This document shows positions 691-61,680 of a stretch of DNA of 64,000 nt, in pieces. A program made the position numbers and the translations under genes. Numbering within the stretch: position 1 is the stretch's first letter; each line of letters begins with the position of its first letter. The notes beneath the pieces are model-generated. The model was given only the letters and a program-made list of their open reading frames with translations, was not told where the DNA came from and made no database searches. The stretch lies in NCBI RefSeq assembly GCF_009931435.1, contig NZ_CP043414.1. One strand, given 5' to 3'. This DNA is from Escherichia coli (lineage in GTDB: Bacteria; Pseudomonadota; Gammaproteobacteria; Enterobacterales; Enterobacteriaceae).

Positions 691-3581
<2,891 letters not shown>

Positions 3582-24774: not shown

Positions 24775-24867
24775 GGTGAGGTGGCCGAGAGGCTGAAGGC
24801 GCTCCCCTGCTAAGGGAGTATGCGGTCAAAAGCTGCATCCGGGGTTCGAATCCCCGCCTCACCGCCA
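24775..24867 (+). tRNA. serV: tRNA-Ser (anticodon GCU)
   Basis: 93-nt sequence GGTGAGGTGGCCGAGAGGCUGAAGG...CCGCCUCACCGCCA with long variable arm and anticodon loop CCUGCUAAG. Confidence 0.93.
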
Positions 24868-24870
24868 TTT

Positions 24871-24947
24871 GCATCCGTAGCTCAGCTGGATAGAGTACTC
24901 GGCTACGAACCGAGCGGTCGGAGGTTCGAATCCTCCCGGATGCACCA
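24871..24947 (+). tRNA. argV: tRNA-Arg (anticodon ACG)
   Basis: GCATCCGTAGCTCAGCTGGATAGAGTACTCGGCTACGAACCGAGCGGTCGGAGGTTCGAATCCTCCCGGATGCACCA; 3 nt after serV. Confidence 0.93.
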
Positions 24948-25082
24948 TATTCTACGAAATCTTCAGCAATGAAGGTGTCGAAGAGGTGGCGGTACTAACC
25001 GCAAGCACCAGGGAGGATAACGTTGCTTTAGCAACGGCCCGAAGGGCGAGCCGTAAGGCGAGTAATCCTCCCGGATGCACCA
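24948..25082 (+). repeat. Spacer repeat unit ending in a tRNA-Arg 3'-terminal fragment (aatcctcccggatgcacca)
   Basis: About 135-nt unit after argV; its last 19 nt duplicate the T-arm/acceptor 3' end plus CCA of tRNA-Arg without the rest of the tRNA. Confidence 0.6.
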
Positions 25083-25146
25083 TCTCTTACTTGATACGGC
25101 TTTAGTAGCGGTATCAAAAAATCTGCAGTAAAGTAAGTTTCCCGAT

Positions 25147-25223
25147 GCATCCGTAGCTCAGCTGGATAGAGTACTCGGCTACGAACCGAGCGGTCGGAGG
25201 TTCGAATCCTCCCGGATGCACCA
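25147..25223 (+). tRNA. argY: tRNA-Arg (anticodon ACG)
   Basis: Identical 77-nt tRNA-Arg copy; spacing to neighbours (276 and 140 nt) matches the argVYZQ arrangement as I recall it. Confidence 0.9.
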
Positions 25224-25286
25224 TCTCTTACTTGATATGGCTTTAGTAGCGATATCAATATCAGCAGTAAAGTAAGTTCTCCCGAT

Positions 25287-25363
25287 GCATCCGTAGCTCA
25301 GCTGGATAGAGTACTCGGCTACGAACCGAGCGGTCGGAGGTTCGAATCCTCCCGGATGCACCA
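25287..25363 (+). tRNA. argZ: tRNA-Arg (anticodon ACG)
   Basis: Identical 77-nt tRNA-Arg copy. Confidence 0.9.
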
Positions 25364-25498
25364 TATTCTCCGAAATCTTCAGCAATGAAGATATCGAAGA
25401 GGTAGCGGAATTAACCGCAGGCACCAGGAAGGATAACGTTGCTTTAGCAACGGCCCGAAGGGCGAGCCGCAAGGCGAGTAATCCTCCCGGATGCACCA
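25364..25498 (+). repeat. Spacer repeat unit ending in a tRNA-Arg 3'-terminal fragment
   Basis: Near-identical copy of the 24948-25082 unit after argZ. Confidence 0.6.
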
Positions 25499-25561
25499 TC
25501 TCTTATTTGATATGGCTTTAGTAGCGGTATCAATATCAGCAGTAAAGTAATTTCTCCCGAT

Positions 25562-25638
25562 GCATCCGTAGCTCAGCTGGATAGAGTACTCGGCTACGAA
25601 CCGAGCGGTCGGAGGTTCGAATCCTCCCGGATGCACCA
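25562..25638 (+). tRNA. argQ: tRNA-Arg (anticodon ACG)
   Basis: Identical 77-nt tRNA-Arg copy; last gene of the operon. Confidence 0.9.
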
Positions 25639-28547: not shown

Positions 28548-28620
28548 AAAAAGGCCACTCGTGAGTGGCCAAAATTTCATCTCTGAATTCAGGGATGATG
28601 ATAACAAATGCGCGTCTTTC
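28548..28620 (-). ncRNA. micA: MicA (SraD) small regulatory RNA
   Basis: Minus strand reads GAAAGACGCGCATTTGTTATCATCATCCCTGAATTCAGAGATGAAATTTTGGCCACTCACGAGTGGCCTTTTT, the MicA sequence as I recall it, with its terminator hairpin GGCCACTCACGAGTGGCC and T-run; located between gshA and luxS. Confidence 0.85.
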
Positions 28621-29248: not shown

Positions 29249-30361
29249 TTACCTGTCAGTCACCCGATATTCCACGCTATGTGCTTCATCAGGTTGAGGA
29301 ACTTCCAGCCTTGAGGCCATCCGCATCACGACCGCTTCAGGAACGGCATACTCGCGCCTGGCATTTTGCTGCTTCCATTGCGCCCACGGTACTTCCAGAT
29401 AAACGATTTTTACTCGTGCACCGTAAGCCGTAAACAGACTGATGAGCTGGCTACGCAACTGGCGGGTAATGTTCGTTGCATTCCAGATGAACGGCTTCTT
29501 CTGGCGTAAAAAAACGCGCGCTTCTTCTTTTGCCTGTTGCACAATACGCCCGGTGGCGGTTTTGTCGTCCGGACTGGCATTGATTCGCCGCCGCATATCA
29601 TCAAGGCTGATAACGTTCACTCTCTGGCACTGTTCACTGATAAAGCGATCTTTGCCCATACCCGGTAAACCACACAGCAAAATAACCTCAAAAGATTCAG
29701 CCTCCCAGGGAACAAAATCAGGAGAACTTTGTTCATGGGTCAGGTAATGCCAGCGTGCGGAATCCGAAGCGAATGAACGCACTTTTCCCCAGCATTGTTG
29801 CTCCTGGCAAAATAGCTTGAACAGATCGATGCGTTCCAGCATTGATTGCTGATCATGACAATGGCGACCAAGCAGATCGGCACGAGCAAGCAAAGCGAGC
29901 AGACGCGTGTCGATACGCATTGCAGCCGTGAGCAGCAAACGCTCCGGTTCCGGACGTTCCAGTAACCATAGCGGTAACCCATGCAGACGCACCAGTGCAA
30001 CAATTTGCTCGCGTAGCACGAACGGTGTCGGGATATCGCGCCATAAAATTTGTCGGGCCGTCAATTCACCCCGACGAGCATGACCAGGGGACTGAATACG
30101 TCCGTTTTCCTGCACGGTAGTACTGCGCTTTTCAACGTCATGCAATAACGCCGCCGCCCATAAAATTTCCTGCTGCTGAGCGGGGAGTTGCTGAAACTCA
30201 GCCATCGCAACGAGTGCGTTCAGCACCATTTCAGTATGCACACCAACGTCGCCTTCACCATGATGCTCCGGGTCTTGCGGCGTGTTATGCATATCCTCAA
30301 CCCAGCTAAAACGCTGGCGTAGCGTCGACCAGCGTTTGTCGTCGGTAAGTTGCCAAATCAT
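29249..30361 (-). CDS. HD-domain phosphoesterase fused to P-loop NTPase (polynucleotide-kinase-like); predicted RNA/DNA end-healing enzyme
   Basis: 370-aa ORF. N-terminal HD signature: [16 protein letters not shown] (res 31-46), AALLHDVEK (res 70-78), ARADLLGR (res 159-166). C-terminal Walker A GLPGMGKD (res 231-238) and Walker B-like NVISLDD (res 249-255). Start overlaps the stop of the upstream ligase-like ORF by 4 nt. Confidence 0.65.
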
Positions 30362-31065
30362 GACTGTTCTCCATAAGCGAACTCATGGGCCATCCGCGCC
30401 CGTCGCCAGTGGCGTTTCCAGTGCTCGGTGGTTTTGACATGATTTTTGCGTACATACTTGAAGACGTTATGCGAAAAGTCAGCGACGGAAAACGCATCAC
30501 TATTCCGGCTGACAATGCCTTCCAGCGTACAGGGTTGCCCGGTTTGCGTATCCCAGGGATCGAACGCGCCGCGCGCATTGGTCAGCGCCAGAAAATCACG
30601 TTGCCAGCTTTTTTCATCATTCCCCGGCTGCGGGCCGGAGATTTCGGGAACGCAGGGGAAATCAAACAGAGCGGCGTAAAACTGCACCTCTTCCCAGCTC
30701 AGCCACATATCCTGGCAGCGAACGGCAAACAGATAAAAATCCTGCTCCAGGGCGCGATATTCAATCGAATGAACGGCATAAAGATTTTCACCAAACAACT
30801 CCAGATCGCCGAGATCGTTTTTCAGCGATTGCCAGCGTTGGCGAATTTTATAGGTCCATGCCGATTCCGTTGGCGCGGCATGGGAACGGGCAAACACGCC
30901 GAAGCGATTAAGACAGTTATTTTCGCCGTCGAGTTTTTCAGTATGTACCAACTGCGAAATTGCCTGCATATCTTGCCAGTAACTGGCGTTAATGCGGTCA
31001 TCGCTGGTGGTGCCAGGGGAGAAGGGATAATGCCAGGTTCTCCCGTATTTACGTTGGATAATCAT
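30358..31065 (-). CDS. Rnl2-like ATP-dependent RNA ligase (nucleotidyltransferase domain only)
   Basis: 235-aa ORF with candidate covalent-nucleotidyltransferase motifs in canonical order and spacing: I KLDG (K44), III LFGE (90-93), IV EGIV (182-185), V KYVRK (203-207). First gene of a 2-gene operon. Confidence 0.6.
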
Positions 31066-44762: not shown

Positions 44763-44970
44763 GATTCGTATTTCCGTTTAAAATGAAGATACGGCGCGAT
44801 GATACGCGTCGGGTTGTCTCTCTGTTGATACAGAGATACTAGATGTAGTTGAAAAAAGATTCAACCATACAAGATATGGGAATTTTAGATTGATTACACC
44901 ACCGATGAATGGCTCAACGGGGTAGGGGATTTTGTGTTTTTTTGCCGGGCGATTGCCCGGCATCAGGAAG

Positions 44971-45402
44971 TTACATCCGCATGGAAACGGCCAGGCGGTT
45001 AAAGCAATTCATCAGCCCGATGGCAAATGTTAAGTCGCTGATTTCTGCTGCGCTGAAATGCTCAAGCAAAGGCTGATAAACGTCGTCTTCCGCATGGGTT
45101 CGGGCAATATCGGTCACCGATTCCGCCCATGCCAGCGCCGCCCGCTCGCGATCGTCAAAATGATGGCTTACGCGCCAGCCTGCCAGGGCATCCAGCTTAT
45201 GCTGCGGCACACCGGATTTGCGTAATGCTTTGCTGTGCATCTCCAGACAAAATGCGCAACCATTGATTTGCGAGACGCGCAAATAAACTAACTCCATCAG
45301 CGTAGTTTCCAGCGTGCTATTTTCCAGCGCCGTTTTGGCCTGCACCAGCGCGTTATATACCGTTGGGCTAAGTTCGTAGTAAGGCTGACGTAATGTAGTC
45401 AT
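44971..45402 (-). CDS. AhpD-like / carboxymuconolactone decarboxylase family protein
   Basis: 143-aa ORF with CxxCxxxH signature (NGCAFCLEMH); strong AGGAG SD; divergent from a MocR-type regulator. I do not recall a gene here in K-12. Confidence 0.7.
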   Translation of the reverse strand: MTTLRQPYYELSPTVYNALVQAKTALENSTLETTLMELVYLRVSQINGCAFCLEMHSKALRKSGVPQHKLDALAGWRVSHHFDDRERAALAWAESVTDIARTHAEDDVYQPLLEHFSAAEISDLTFAIGLMNCFNRLAVSMRM

Positions 45403-45489
45403 ACAGTTTCTCCTCTTATTAACGCCCGCAATGTAGCACTATAATGGACTGCTAAAGAGAGCCATAAATTACCTAAAAAAGCAGACCAT

Positions 45490-46824
45490 ATGCCGCGCTA
45501 TCAGGATATCGCCCGTCAGTTAAAAACGGCTATTGAGCAAGGGGAACTGAAACCCGGCGCAAGGCTACCTTCAAGTCGTACCTGGTCGCAGGAACTGGGG
45601 GTGTCTCGATCCACTGTCGAAAATGCGTATGCTGAGCTGGTGGCGCAAGGATGGCTGATCAGGCGGGGACAGGCTGGCACATTTGTCAGTGAGCAGATAT
45701 ATCCGCAACAATCTACTGTACAAGTTGTGTCTTTTGCCGGTGAAAGTCAGCAACCGTTGCCATTTCAAATGGGATTACCCGCACTCGATCTCTTTCCGCG
45801 AGAGCTGTGGGCGCGGGTGATGGGGCGTCGCCTTCGTACCCAGACGCGCTTTGATTTGGCGTTAGGCGATGTCTGCGGTGAGGCGGCGTTGCGTGAGGCA
45901 ATAGTTGATTACTTACGCGTTTCACGTGGGATTGATTGTCAGCCAGAGCAGGTCTTTATCACTCACGGTTATGCGGCCTCAATGGCTTTAATTCTGCACG
46001 CGCTGGCGAAACCGGGAAACGGGATGTGGATGGAAGATCCCGGCTTTCCACTGATTCGCCCGATTGTCACTCGCCACGGTGTGGAAATTTTGCCTGTGCC
46101 GGTTGATGACAACGGACTGGATATCACAAGCGGAATACAAAATTATCCTGATGCGTGTTTTGCCCTGATAACACCAGCACACCAAAGCCCGCTGGGTGTG
46201 GCGCTCTCTTTAGCGCGCAGGCATCAGATACTGGAATGGGCAGAGCGTAGTCAGGCATGGATTATTGAAGATGATTATGACAGTGAGTTTCGCTATCACG
46301 GTAAGCCGTTACCGGCGTTAAAAAGTCTCGATGCACCGCAGCGGGTAATTTATGCCGGAACATTCAGCAAAGCACTATTTCCTGCATTGCGCTGTGCGTG
46401 GCTGGTGGTGCCGGTGAAGCAAATTGCACAATTCCGCCACCAGGCGTCACTGGCTCCATGTGCGGTACCTGTTCTATGGCAGAACACACTGGCAGACTTT
46501 CTTCGCGAGGGGCATTTCTGGCGGCATCTGAAGAAAATGCGTCAGCATTATGCTCAACGTCGGCAATGGATTGAGCAAGCGTTGACGCAGCAGGGATTTC
46601 AGGTTGTGCCGCAGAAAGGTGGTATCCAGATGGTGATCAGAATGATGGGCGATGATATTGCCCATGCGCGTAAAGCCAATGCTGCAGGCCTTGCGGTGCA
46701 GGCACTTAGCGACTGGCGTATCCGCTCAAGTGGGGAAGGTGGATTACTTCTCTCGTTTACCAATATCGTTAACGAAGGTATGGCGCGACAGGTAGCACAA
46801 CAATTACGTAAAGCCTTAAGCTAA
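45490..46824 (+). CDS. MocR/GabR-type regulator (GntR wHTH fused to PLP-dependent aminotransferase-like domain)
   Basis: 444-aa ORF; N-terminal GntR HTH (YQDIARQLKTAIEQGELKPGARLPSSRTWSQELGVSRSTVENAYAELVAQGWL), C-terminal class-I aminotransferase-like region with candidate PLP lysine (FSKALFP). Confidence 0.75.
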   Translation: MPRYQDIARQLKTAIEQGELKPGARLPSSRTWSQELGVSRSTVENAYAELVAQGWLIRRGQAGTFVSEQIYPQQSTVQVVSFAGESQQPLPFQMGLPALDLFPRELWARVMGRRLRTQTRFDLALGDVCGEAALREAIVDYLRVSRGIDCQPEQVFITHGYAASMALILHALAKPGNGMWMEDPGFPLIRPIVTRHGVEILPVPVDDNGLDITSGIQNYPDACFALITPAHQSPLGVALSLARRHQILEWAERSQAWIIEDDYDSEFRYHGKPLPALKSLDAPQRVIYAGTFSKALFPALRCAWLVVPVKQIAQFRHQASLAPCAVPVLWQNTLADFLREGHFWRHLKKMRQHYAQRRQWIEQALTQQGFQVVPQKGGIQMVIRMMGDDIAHARKANAAGLAVQALSDWRIRSSGEGGLLLSFTNIVNEGMARQVAQQLRKALS

Positions 46825-47741: not shown

Positions 47742-48191
47742 TCAGGCTTTTACCTGCTGGTAACGGCTGACTTTAAACAGTCGGCGGCAATAATCGAGGA
47801 AGTAGCCATAAACCGCCCCCATCAACATCGAAACAACGATGTTTGAACTGACCGCAGCCATAATCTGATGCCAGTCTGCGCCCACCACTAACAAGATCGC
47901 CACATACACCGGTGACTGGAACGTCACATACGCCAGGATATCCGCCAGATTTTTTACCCAGCCCGACGGACTAACTTTGCGTGCCGCGCGCATAAACAGA
48001 TCGCGGTACATACCGTATGGCCATGCAATTAAGATGTTCACCGGAATCGCTACCAATCTGGAATAAAGAGACTGTTCGAAGCTCATTCCGGAGAGGAAAA
48101 CTTCAATACACATGTTCACGACAGAACAGTAAACAACCATCGCGAACGTATCTGCAACTGCATGACGCAAGCGTGACTGCGGTGAGAACAT
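47742..48191 (-). CDS. alaE: L-alanine exporter
   Basis: 149-aa membrane ORF adjacent to stpA. Confidence 0.88.
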
Positions 48192-48857
48192 GCTAATGCT
48201 CCTTAATAAAAGCGTAATGGGACGTTAATAGAGATGAAAGCAGTGGATCTCATTGCCATCTGCATTTTCGCATAGCGTATATCGCTGGCTATGACTAATC
48301 AATTAGTGAAAAATTTTTATTTAATCTGTTTTTGTAGATAAAATATTCCGTAGCGGCGCGTTTTTTGTACATTGTGGATTTTTACATGCTGATATGATTT
48401 ATTTTTAATTAAATCAATTAGATATGGGCGTATCTTTATTTTCACTAATGAAAGTTTGGGGGTGAGGTAACGCTATAAGCGTAGAGAATTCGGTGTATGC
48501 AGTGACTGGGTCATTTTCAGCATTTTTTATGCCAGACAATGTACATTAACAGCAGAAAGCACCAGTGAGTGATGTTTATTTTTATTCGTATATATTGCAT
48601 TTTTATTCGATTTGGTTTTATCAGGCTTGCGGAATTAGCGAGCAGAGAGCGCCGCTCTGTTCACCAATAACCGAAATTACTCATCAAATTGGCTAATATA
48701 TAATCTTGAAATTATTCTGAGAGTTTCAGAAAATAACAGCTGAAATAATCTCGTGCAGGACTGTAAATAGATTAAATTTTGTGGAAATATAATAAGTGAT
48801 CGCTTACACTACGCGACGAAATACTTTTTGTTTTGGCGTTAAAAGGTTTCCTTTATT

Positions 48858-49262
48858 ATGTCCGTAATGTTACAAAGTCTAAATAACATTCGCACTCTCC
48901 GTGCGATGGCTCGCGAATTCTCCATTGACGTTCTTGAAGAAATGCTCGAAAAATTCAGGGTTGTCACTAAAGAAAGACGTGAAGAAGAAGAACAGCAGCA
49001 GCGTGAACTGGCAGAGCGCCAGGAAAAAATTAGTACCTGGCTGGAGCTGATGAAAGCTGACGGAATTAACCCGGAAGAGTTATTGGGTAATAGCTCTGCT
49101 GCCGCACCACGCGCTGGTAAAAAACGCCAGCCGCGTCCGGCAAAATATAAATTCACCGATGTTAACGGTGAAACTAAAACCTGGACCGGTCAGGGCCGTA
49201 CACCGAAGCCAATCGCTCAGGCGCTGGCAGAAGGTAAATCTCTCGACGATTTCCTGATCTAA
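48858..49262 (+). CDS. stpA: H-NS paralogue, DNA-binding/RNA chaperone
   Basis: 134-aa [39 protein letters not shown]... with C-terminal TWTGQGRTP motif. Confidence 0.95.
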
Positions 49263-53194: not shown

Positions 53195-53420
53195 AGAGCG
53201 GCTCCGCCTTATCCGGCCGACATAGATTTATTCCTGTTCACGTACAGATTGTCGGATGCGGCGTAAACGCCTTATCCGACTTGGATTCTCGTAGGCCGGA
53301 CAAGACGCGAAGCGTCGCCTCCGGCATGGTGCGCCGAATGTCGGATGCGGCGTAAACGCCTTATCCGACCTACATTTCCGTAGGCCGGACAAGACGCAAA
53401 GCGTCGCCTCCGGCATGGGT
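53195..53420. repeat. Cluster of REP/BIME elements including two tandem ~80-bp units
   Basis: gtcggatgcggcgtaaacgccttatccgac...gtaggccggacaagacgc(g/a)aagcgtcgcctccggcatgg occurs twice (about 53251-53328 and 53340-53417), preceded by a third partial copy. Confidence 0.6.
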
Positions 53421-61604: not shown

Positions 61605-61680
61605 GGCCCTTTAGCTCAGTGGTTAGAGCAGACGACTCATAATCGCCTGGTCGCTGGTTCAAGTCCAGCAAGGGCCACCA
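61605..61680 (+). tRNA. ileY: tRNA-Ile2 (anticodon CAU, lysidine-modified type)
   Basis: GGCCCTTTAGCTCAGTGGTTAGAGCAGACGACTCATAATCGCCTGGTCGCTGGTTCAAGTCCAGCAAGGGCCACCA; cloverleaf with anticodon loop CTCATAA; adjacent to ygaQ as in K-12. Confidence 0.9.

Follow-up and report, generated by a model that had tools for sequence, protein, structure and literature searches.

The 64,000-nucleotide stretch of Escherichia coli DNA analysed here (the window) contains a spacer of 666 bp (48192-48857, assigned to neither strand; GC content 0.342) between two divergently transcribed genes. On its left lies alaE (47742-48191, minus strand), the gene for the L-alanine exporter, which we recognized from a 149-aa ORF matching the Pfam family AlaE (PF06610, E = 2.4e-67) and from the RefSeq annotation of matching genomes. 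On its right lies stpA (48858-49262, plus strand), which encodes a paralogue of H-NS and was recognized from a 134-aa ORF carrying the Pfam domains Histone_HNS_N and Histone_HNS. The StpA protein of the window is 100% identical to that of K-12. Both in K-12 MG1655 and in the genome closest to the window, RefSeq contains alaE and stpA with no annotation between them.

A previous description of this region, made without database searches (the sequence-only reading), had called it an unusually long, AT-rich spacer with multiple A/T tracts. Its coordinates are correct, and its length of 665 bp becomes 666 bp when both end positions are counted. The remainder of that description agrees with our measurements. 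The 41-kb neighbourhood contains 25 spacers of 30 bp or more, of which this one ranks second in length, the sole longer one adjoining a tRNA-Ile gene. Its GC content lies below both the 0.51 of coding sequence nearby and the 0.391 of the neighbouring spacers taken together. Since other long spacers nearby are comparably AT-rich (GC 0.31-0.375), the alaE-stpA spacer is as AT-rich as long E. coli spacers typically are, and not extreme. Its A/T tracts occur at about twice the level expected from composition, with 20 runs of at least 4 (10.5 +/- 2.8 in shuffled sequences, P ~0.0025) and 10 runs of at least 5 (3.6 +/- 1.8, P ~0.0015). The spacer thus combines the two properties expected of DNA bound by H-NS and StpA, AT-richness relative to the genome and A/T tracts. 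Phasing of AA/TT dinucleotides at 10-11 bp was not significant over the spacer as a whole (P 0.27). In two patches (48276-48401 and 48507-48632) such phasing ranks among the top 1% of the 64-kb window; each has a local-shuffle P of ~0.017, uncorrected for the 30 windows scanned, and provides weak evidence for predicted local bends. Several repeats that we considered as candidate elements proved compatible with chance in dinucleotide shuffles, namely a direct repeat, AATCAATTAG, with two copies 115 bp apart (P 0.42), an 11-nt perfect inverted repeat (48302-48312 / 48439-48449; P 0.09) and a 13-nt inverted repeat upstream of both -35 boxes (P 0.23).

Of the 5426 complete E. coli genomes, 5416 carry a single copy of the spacer stretch, and an 851-bp query spanning it is ~96% identical to most of them. 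Identity of at least 99% over the spacer stretch was found in just 6 of 5419 matching genomes, and the window comes from an uncommon E. coli lineage. Compared with K-12, the window is 97.4% identical across the flanks, and the spacers of the two (668 bp in K-12, 666 bp in the window) are ~96% identical. The substitutions that distinguish them cluster at 48425-48445, 48505-48510 and 48575-48625, in what we show below to be a variable middle, and the T-run in the stpA leader differs by 2 bp. The two spacers agree in all promoter hexamers and conserved boxes, bar a few substitutions. To place the spacer in a wider context, we collected 80 loci of other species with AlaE as the probe. In 57 of these, stpA lies divergently upstream of alaE, across a spacer of 475-789 bp with a GC content of 0.31-0.43. 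As 57 other enterobacterial species share this arrangement, the long AT-rich alaE-stpA spacer is an old, stable and ancestral trait in the Enterobacteriaceae. In a family-wide alignment, conservation is strong in blocks beside alaE, moderate beside stpA, and poor and indel-rich in between, which divides the spacer into three parts: ~235 bp on the alaE side, ~80-120 bp on the stpA side and a middle of ~340 bp.

The alaE side (48192 to ~48425) shows strong block conservation over the ~235 bp adjoining the gene in 38 enterobacterial species (alignment A2). It contains a predicted alaE core promoter (48274-48302, minus strand) composed of a -35 element TTGATT (48302-48297), a 17-bp spacer and a -10 element TACGCT (48279-48274). 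The TTG of the -35 element (48302-48300) and the T, A, C and T of the -10 pattern TAnnCT are invariant in 38 of 38 species, with the 17-bp spacing fixed. From this conserved promoter, alaE transcription is predicted to start near 48267, on an A at 48267 or 48268, giving a putative leader of ~76 nt (48192-48267, minus strand). Its Shine-Dalgarno sequence AAGGAG occupies 48204-48199, and a C(A/G)CT motif is conserved near 48246-48243.

Upstream of the predicted alaE promoter, a conserved region (48303-48425, minus strand) carries a series of boxes that extends to ~-160. The box nearest the promoter, AAATAAAAAT (48322-48313), is nearly invariant to invariant across the 38 species, and an Lrp-like box at 48350-48330, with the family consensus CAGAGnATTTTATCGACAAAA, is nearly invariant in the same set. 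More distal boxes read ACAAAAAAC (48368-48360), GTAAAAATCC (48385-48376) and ATTGATTT (48418-48411). By our own count from alignment A2, the family-consensus box CAGAGTATTTTATCG fits the Lrp consensus at 12 of 15 positions. One of the two AA/TT-phased patches, 48276-48401, overlaps this upstream region. The alaE-side module is also kept in genera that lack stpA, and it therefore belongs to alaE. In work by Ihara in 2017, Lrp reportedly bound ~-161 to -83 upstream of alaE, an interval that would lie within the conserved block with either the ATG or the predicted start as the reference point. We infer that Lrp may act at these particular boxes.

On the stpA side (~48740-48857), the ~80 bp adjoining the gene contain a conserved stpA core promoter (48782-48816, plus strand), with a -35 element TGGAAA (48782-48787), a 17-bp spacer, a -10 element TACACT (48805-48810) and a predicted start near 48816-48817. 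Across 30 species (alignment A3), four positions never vary (T48782, T48805, A48806 and T48810) and three hardly do (G48783, G48784 and A48787), such that the conserved elements read cTGGAAAt and TAcAcT. Both the alaE and the stpA promoter thus possess sigma-70-type hexamers, at a spacing within the range of 16-18 bp, that are kept among relatives. Differential RNA-seq in Salmonella SL1344 mapped two stpA starts, a primary one 42 nt ahead of the ATG and a secondary one at -99 (PMC3963941 supplement), and the -42 start maps to window position 48816, the start predicted here. Two other promoter-like sequences were examined and rejected: a TATAAT at 48788-48793, considered as the stpA -10 element, falls between the two hexamers of the conserved promoter and lacks conservation beyond Escherichia, and a TTGAAA-17-GAAAAT at 48706-48734 is located in an Escherichia-specific insertion.

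The stpA 5' UTR also contains a match, GCGTTAAAAG (48836-48845, plus strand), to the site of the small RNA SdsR. In Salmonella, SdsR represses stpA by pairing in the leader, and structure probing showed that it protects positions -22 to -13 of the stpA mRNA (PMC5137417). The match occupies these same positions relative to the ATG in the window, where it sits just upstream of, and overlaps, the stpA Shine-Dalgarno sequence AAGG (48843-48846). All 10 nt of GCGTTAAAAG are identical, and at an equal offset, in S. enterica subsp. arizonae and diarizonae (alignment A3).

Between these modules lies an AT-rich, fast-evolving middle (~48426-48740, assigned to neither strand; GC content 0.35 in the slice 48431-48780), which occurs as a single copy in E. 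coli genomes. Most of it cannot be aligned between genera, and the length differences between species arise there. Within Escherichia, E. coli is ~46-57% identical over the middle to E. albertii and three other species, as against 80-98% for both flanking modules in the same comparison. What the middle keeps is its AT-richness and its A/T tracts, not its sequence. It most likely offers a non-specific substrate for nucleoid proteins or represents tolerated filler.

The best-surviving alternative, which we nevertheless consider unlikely, goes further and holds that these 340 bp are functionless DNA that drifts neutrally, is AT-rich through mutation bias and is tolerated under H-NS silencing, so that just the two promoter modules matter. 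An identity of about 50% even between Escherichia species speaks for this reading. The length range of 475-789 bp, in which the shortest spacers leave ~100 bp beyond the conserved modules, the chance frequency of short repeats and the lack of enrichment of Lrp and H-NS motifs are all in keeping with it. However, none of the 57 species is entirely without extra DNA between the modules, A/T tracts are more frequent than composition would predict, and the phased patch at 48507-48632 falls in the middle. Short islands (AAGCGTAGAGAAT, TTCAGCATTTTTTATG and TGGCTAATATATAAT) are also kept there within Escherichia, and the contacts described for Lrp and H-NS are extended and of low specificity (PMC10127797).

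Another alternative is that the middle harbours an independent sRNA gene, perhaps lineage-specific and silenced by H-NS, which would run for example from the promoter-like TTTACA-17-TTTAAT (48381-48409) through a predicted pair of hairpins at 48385-48474 (plus strand, stpA-sense). This sequence has been assigned computationally as an stpA-side promoter in the spacer (PMC3946193), the sequence is found in the window, and promoter-like sites are numerous in AT-rich DNA. The hairpins were suggested by sliding-window folding, in which 48375-48474 on the plus strand reached z-scores of -3.7 to -4.0. This was, however, just 1 of 50 window/strand tests to stand out, and in TTTAAT the A that is key at position 2 of a -10 element is missing. 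The z-score of the hairpin segment declines to between -2.65 and -2.9 in K-12 and to -1.8 in Escherichia sp. MOD1-EC7003 (L004), and the signal vanishes (z ~0) in E. albertii and in three further Escherichia species. The predicted hairpins are seen in E. coli alone, depend on G-U-rich pairing and are doubtful as a feature. The control-region model does not explain the fold signal, which is probably due to chance.

Other expected marks of an sRNA gene were likewise sought. No Rfam model matched between 47000 and 50000 even at E <= 10, and none matched the spacer at gathering thresholds; elsewhere in the window, Rfam matches include MicA, naRNA4 and tRNAs. We found no intrinsic terminator, defined as a hairpin followed by a T-run, on either strand of 48192-48857. 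The K-12 Term-seq supplementary tables (LB at two densities, and M63) list consecutive 3' ends at 2798048 and 2798243, in stpA, and then at 2800533, and hold no coordinate within 2798500-2799099; this look-up, like that of the Ribo-RET table below, covered all of the K-12 spacer except 2798496-2798499 and the ~64 bp at 2799100-2799163, in few growth conditions. The pairing of a promoter with a terminator or 3' end, and membership in an RNA family or a conserved structure, by which an sRNA gene would be recognized, was not found in the spacer by these searches. The gshA-luxS spacer of the same window provides a useful comparison: like the alaE-stpA spacer, it is non-coding DNA between two protein genes, but the MicA gene within it scores 83.9 bits against its Rfam model, whereas the alaE-stpA spacer has no Rfam match, terminator or Term-seq 3'-end coordinate (2798500-2799099). 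We consider an independent sRNA gene very improbable, and give equally little credence to the related idea that the middle and its E. coli-only hairpins yield a lineage-specific transcript (an sRNA or a long alternative stpA leader) that is silenced by H-NS and invisible in the conditions profiled.

Still less probable is that the spacer encodes a small protein or leader peptide. There are 18 ORFs of at least 10 codons in the spacer, the two candidates of note being a 20-codon ORF ahead of alaE (48265-48203, minus strand) and a 43-codon ORF (48565-48696, plus strand). In the window, K-12, Escherichia sp. MOD1-EC7003 (L004) and E. albertii, the 20-codon ORF is unbroken; it terminates inside the ribosome-binding site of alaE, its stop codon overlapping the Shine-Dalgarno sequence. 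Nevertheless, it is not preserved in the three further Escherichia species examined, has no equivalent reading frame in other genera, lacks a Shine-Dalgarno sequence of its own and would begin 2 nt from the transcript's predicted 5' end, and the 43-codon ORF is already broken in K-12. Overall, none of the 18 ORFs is intact across all seven Escherichia sequences, as a conserved small protein would require, and the Ribo-RET table of novel E. coli small ORFs, which covers limited conditions, contains no coordinate within 2798500-2799099. A hidden sRNA and a hidden small ORF are both unlikely, and to about the same degree. Among other resources on this locus, PIRT-Seq lists its gene names and nothing more, and PMC12266141 does not discuss it.

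The least probable alternative is that the alaE-proximal block is a transcribed leader RNA, such as an alanine riboswitch or attenuator, and not a set of DNA-level protein sites: the ~235 bp upstream of alaE are unusually conserved for non-coding DNA and contain an inverted repeat, AGCG-TATAT-CGCT, that changes on both arms between genera (e.g. to AGAG-ATATA-CTCT), but the invariant TTG-17-TAnnCT is a promoter pattern and, when read as such, places the inverted repeat over the -10 element and thus outside the transcript. The downstream region has no conserved structure or covarying pairs in 29 species (RNAalifold, -0.06 kcal/mol, 4 trivial pairs, 0 compensatory changes), so that the alaE leader does not display the conserved, covarying 5' UTR structure that defines riboswitches and attenuators. 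Minus-strand fold z-scores across 48192-48430 are mostly between -1.5 and +0.4, with a minimum of -2.0 at 48375-48474, no Rfam cis-regulatory model matches, and the published regulation operates via Lrp (PMC10127797; PMC6801825).

The reading that we favour, and hold with considerable confidence, is that the spacer is a shared control region of the divergent alaE and stpA genes and contains no further gene. The orthologous stpA-alaE (ygaW) region of K-12, which has the same divergent gene order, has been the subject of studies of Lrp bridging and of H-NS and RNA polymerase SELEX in another lineage than that of the window (Ziegler and Freddolino, mBio 2023, PMC10127797; Shimada et al. 2014, PMC3946193). 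In K-12, Lrp ChIP-seq gives strong double peaks over the stpA-alaE region, and bridging of this DNA by Lrp to a position within ygaP is seen both in vivo and under atomic force microscopy (AFM), where leucine abolishes it (PMC10127797). Deletion of the ygaP peak reduces Lrp activation of stpA more than 5-fold, and reporter and qRT-PCR assays at the K-12 locus document effects of Lrp. In minimal medium Lrp slightly represses alaE, and in the presence of leucine, isoleucine and valine it activates alaE strongly (PMC10127797). alaE is also described as activated by Lrp with L-alanine or L-leucine in the account that PMC6801825 gives of Ihara 2017. Binding of H-NS to the stpA/alaE spacer is recorded as 'HNS' in the genomic SELEX table (PMC3946193), and stpA is summarized as silenced by H-NS, Lrp-dependent in minimal medium and induced by osmotic and temperature shifts (PMC4668568). 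All of these Lrp and H-NS occupancy data come from K-12, whose spacer is ~96% identical to that of the lineage studied here.

Motif scans of the window were less informative. The Lrp SELEX consensus YAGHAWATTWTDCTR has two weak matches in the spacer, each with 3 mismatches (48273-48287 and 48705-48719), and over the whole window it has 103 matches against 82 +/- 11 expected, which is not significant. The high-affinity H-NS motif TCGATAAATT, at up to 2 mismatches, occurs once in the spacer against 1.7 expected, a density equal to that in the rest of the window. By themselves, these motifs do not demonstrate binding by Lrp or H-NS. The sequence-only reading had considered the spacer consistent with H-NS/Lrp nucleation, and the published K-12 ChIP, SELEX and bridging data agree with this even though motifs YAGHAWATTWTDCTR and TCGATAAATT are not enriched. 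It had also regarded a hidden small ORF or sRNA as conceivable yet unsupported, an assessment borne out by the uniformly negative results from Rfam, terminator, ORF, structure, Term-seq and Ribo-RET analyses.

Several known systems share parts of this organization. Regulatory regions in which Lrp binds several sites and loops or bridges DNA include those of dadAX and oppA (both in PMC10127797) and of ilvIH. With the spacer they would share AT-rich upstream DNA, multiple degenerate Lrp contacts extending over more than 100 bp, a response to leucine or alanine, and a weak core promoter that needs activation. The alaE-stpA spacer differs from dadAX, oppA and ilvIH in that it serves two divergent genes with different logic, alaE being activated when amino acids are present and stpA in minimal medium, and in that one bridging partner is located inside a neighbouring coding sequence, ygaP. 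H-NS-silenced promoters in extended AT-rich DNA include those of proU, bgl and hns itself; proV is located in the same 64-kb window as the alaE-stpA spacer. Promoters of this type resemble the spacer in having DNA rich in A/T tracts around a sigma-70 promoter, repression by H-NS and cross-regulation by StpA. In contrast to them, the spacer is not enriched for the high-affinity H-NS motif, and its silencing is countered by Lrp.

Within the window and its relatives, the shared control region is marked by the gene identities, the composition, the excess of tracts, the pattern of conservation, the promoter hexamers and the missing RNA and small-ORF signals. Lrp and H-NS occupancy and their effects, the stpA start and SdsR pairing would apply to the window by analogy with the K-12 and Salmonella literature. 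On this basis, the weak sigma-70 promoter of alaE would fire poorly alone, and the conserved AT-rich array extending to ~-160 would recruit Lrp and switch alaE on when L-alanine or L-leucine is abundant. H-NS, and also StpA, would polymerise or spread on the AT-rich DNA and silence the stpA promoter. In minimal medium, Lrp would bridge the spacer to the ygaP site more than 1 kb away, thereby countering the silencing and activating stpA. The resulting stpA mRNA would carry a 5' UTR of ~42 nt with a ribosome-binding site and an SdsR-type site, through which SdsR may act post-transcriptionally. The middle of ~340 bp would offer a low-specificity AT-rich substrate for these proteins, or be tolerated filler.

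This control region and its regulators (Lrp, H-NS/StpA and SdsR) have already been published for K-12 and Salmonella, and as a textbook-style divergent control region the spacer has small discovery value. It does, however, drop off the candidate lists for hidden genes. What our analysis adds is a comparative map of the spacer, comprising a ~235 bp alaE part that contains a predicted alaE promoter invariant in 38 species, a ~80 bp core of the stpA promoter and an AT-rich remainder of ~340 bp. This map can guide the dissection of Lrp bridging and H-NS silencing at the locus.

The 851-bp query covering the alaE-stpA spacer (48192-48857) shares about 96% identity with most E. coli genomes; for the 4 kb around it, identity to K-12 is 97.4%. 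Since identity over the query reaches at least 99% in only 6 of the 5419 matching genomes, the window represents an uncommon lineage. Its AlaE protein is 99% identical to those of both E. albertii and Escherichia sp. MOD1-EC7003, in contrast to its StpA, which is identical to that of K-12.

Within the spacer, a pair of hairpins is predicted on the plus strand at 48385-48474, with folding far better than that of shuffled sequences (z of -3.7 to -4.0). This fold signal is less pronounced in K-12 and is gone in the other Escherichia species compared. In the second hairpin, six substitutions clustered within 20 bp of the left arm (48427-48446) separate the window lineage from K-12, and no change matching these six is found in the right arm.

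On the alaE side, the 5' UTRs of Enterobacter, Salmonella and a number of further genera have a high C and A content (e.g. CACGTCAAACAAACCAACCTAAAGCAC), examples being positions 2922-3000 and 2925-3000 of the related enterobacterial loci L027 and L032, respectively. These leaders may resemble the C- and A-rich targets of GcvB, an sRNA acting in amino acid transport; the E. coli alaE leader is far less C/A-rich. A literature search for a link between GcvB and alaE found no such paper. On the stpA side, published K-12 Term-seq data place an RNA 3' end within the stpA coding sequence, 252 nt into the ORF at position 2798243 (corresponding to about position 49110 of the window, plus strand), as well as a further stpA 3' end after the gene.

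MicA (28549-28620, minus strand; Rfam, 83.9 bits), located in the gshA-luxS spacer, served as a positive control for the appearance of an sRNA-bearing spacer in the window. Judged from the offset between the related locus L083 and the window, another Rfam match, to nucleoid-associated ncRNA 4 (naRNA4, CssrE; 53294-53370, minus strand; 71.1 bits), seems to be situated between gabP and gabT. The tRNA genes comprise a five-gene cluster (24775-25635, plus strand), four members of which have identical scores, and a single isolated gene (61605-61677, plus strand). The latter is the counterpart of a tRNA-Ile that, in a related genome, adjoins long spacers of 559 bp and 751 bp as well as island-like genes encoding a DUF5507 protein, a recombinase fragment and an AIDA-repeat protein.

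Compared with K-12, the window has about 1.9 kb of additional DNA between nrdH and ygaM (44878-46822), where a carboxymuconolactone decarboxylase family gene (44971-45402, minus strand) is divergent from a MocR-type regulator of GntR/aminotransferase fold (45490-46824, plus strand). Two overlapping genes between luxS and emrB (29249-31065, minus strand) are, we presume, also absent from K-12. Neither matched a PADLOC defence model. One encodes a 370-aa protein with an AAA_33 kinase-like domain and a weak, sub-cutoff match to an HD domain, and the other a 235-aa RNA ligase (PF09414); the pair looks like an RNA repair cassette.
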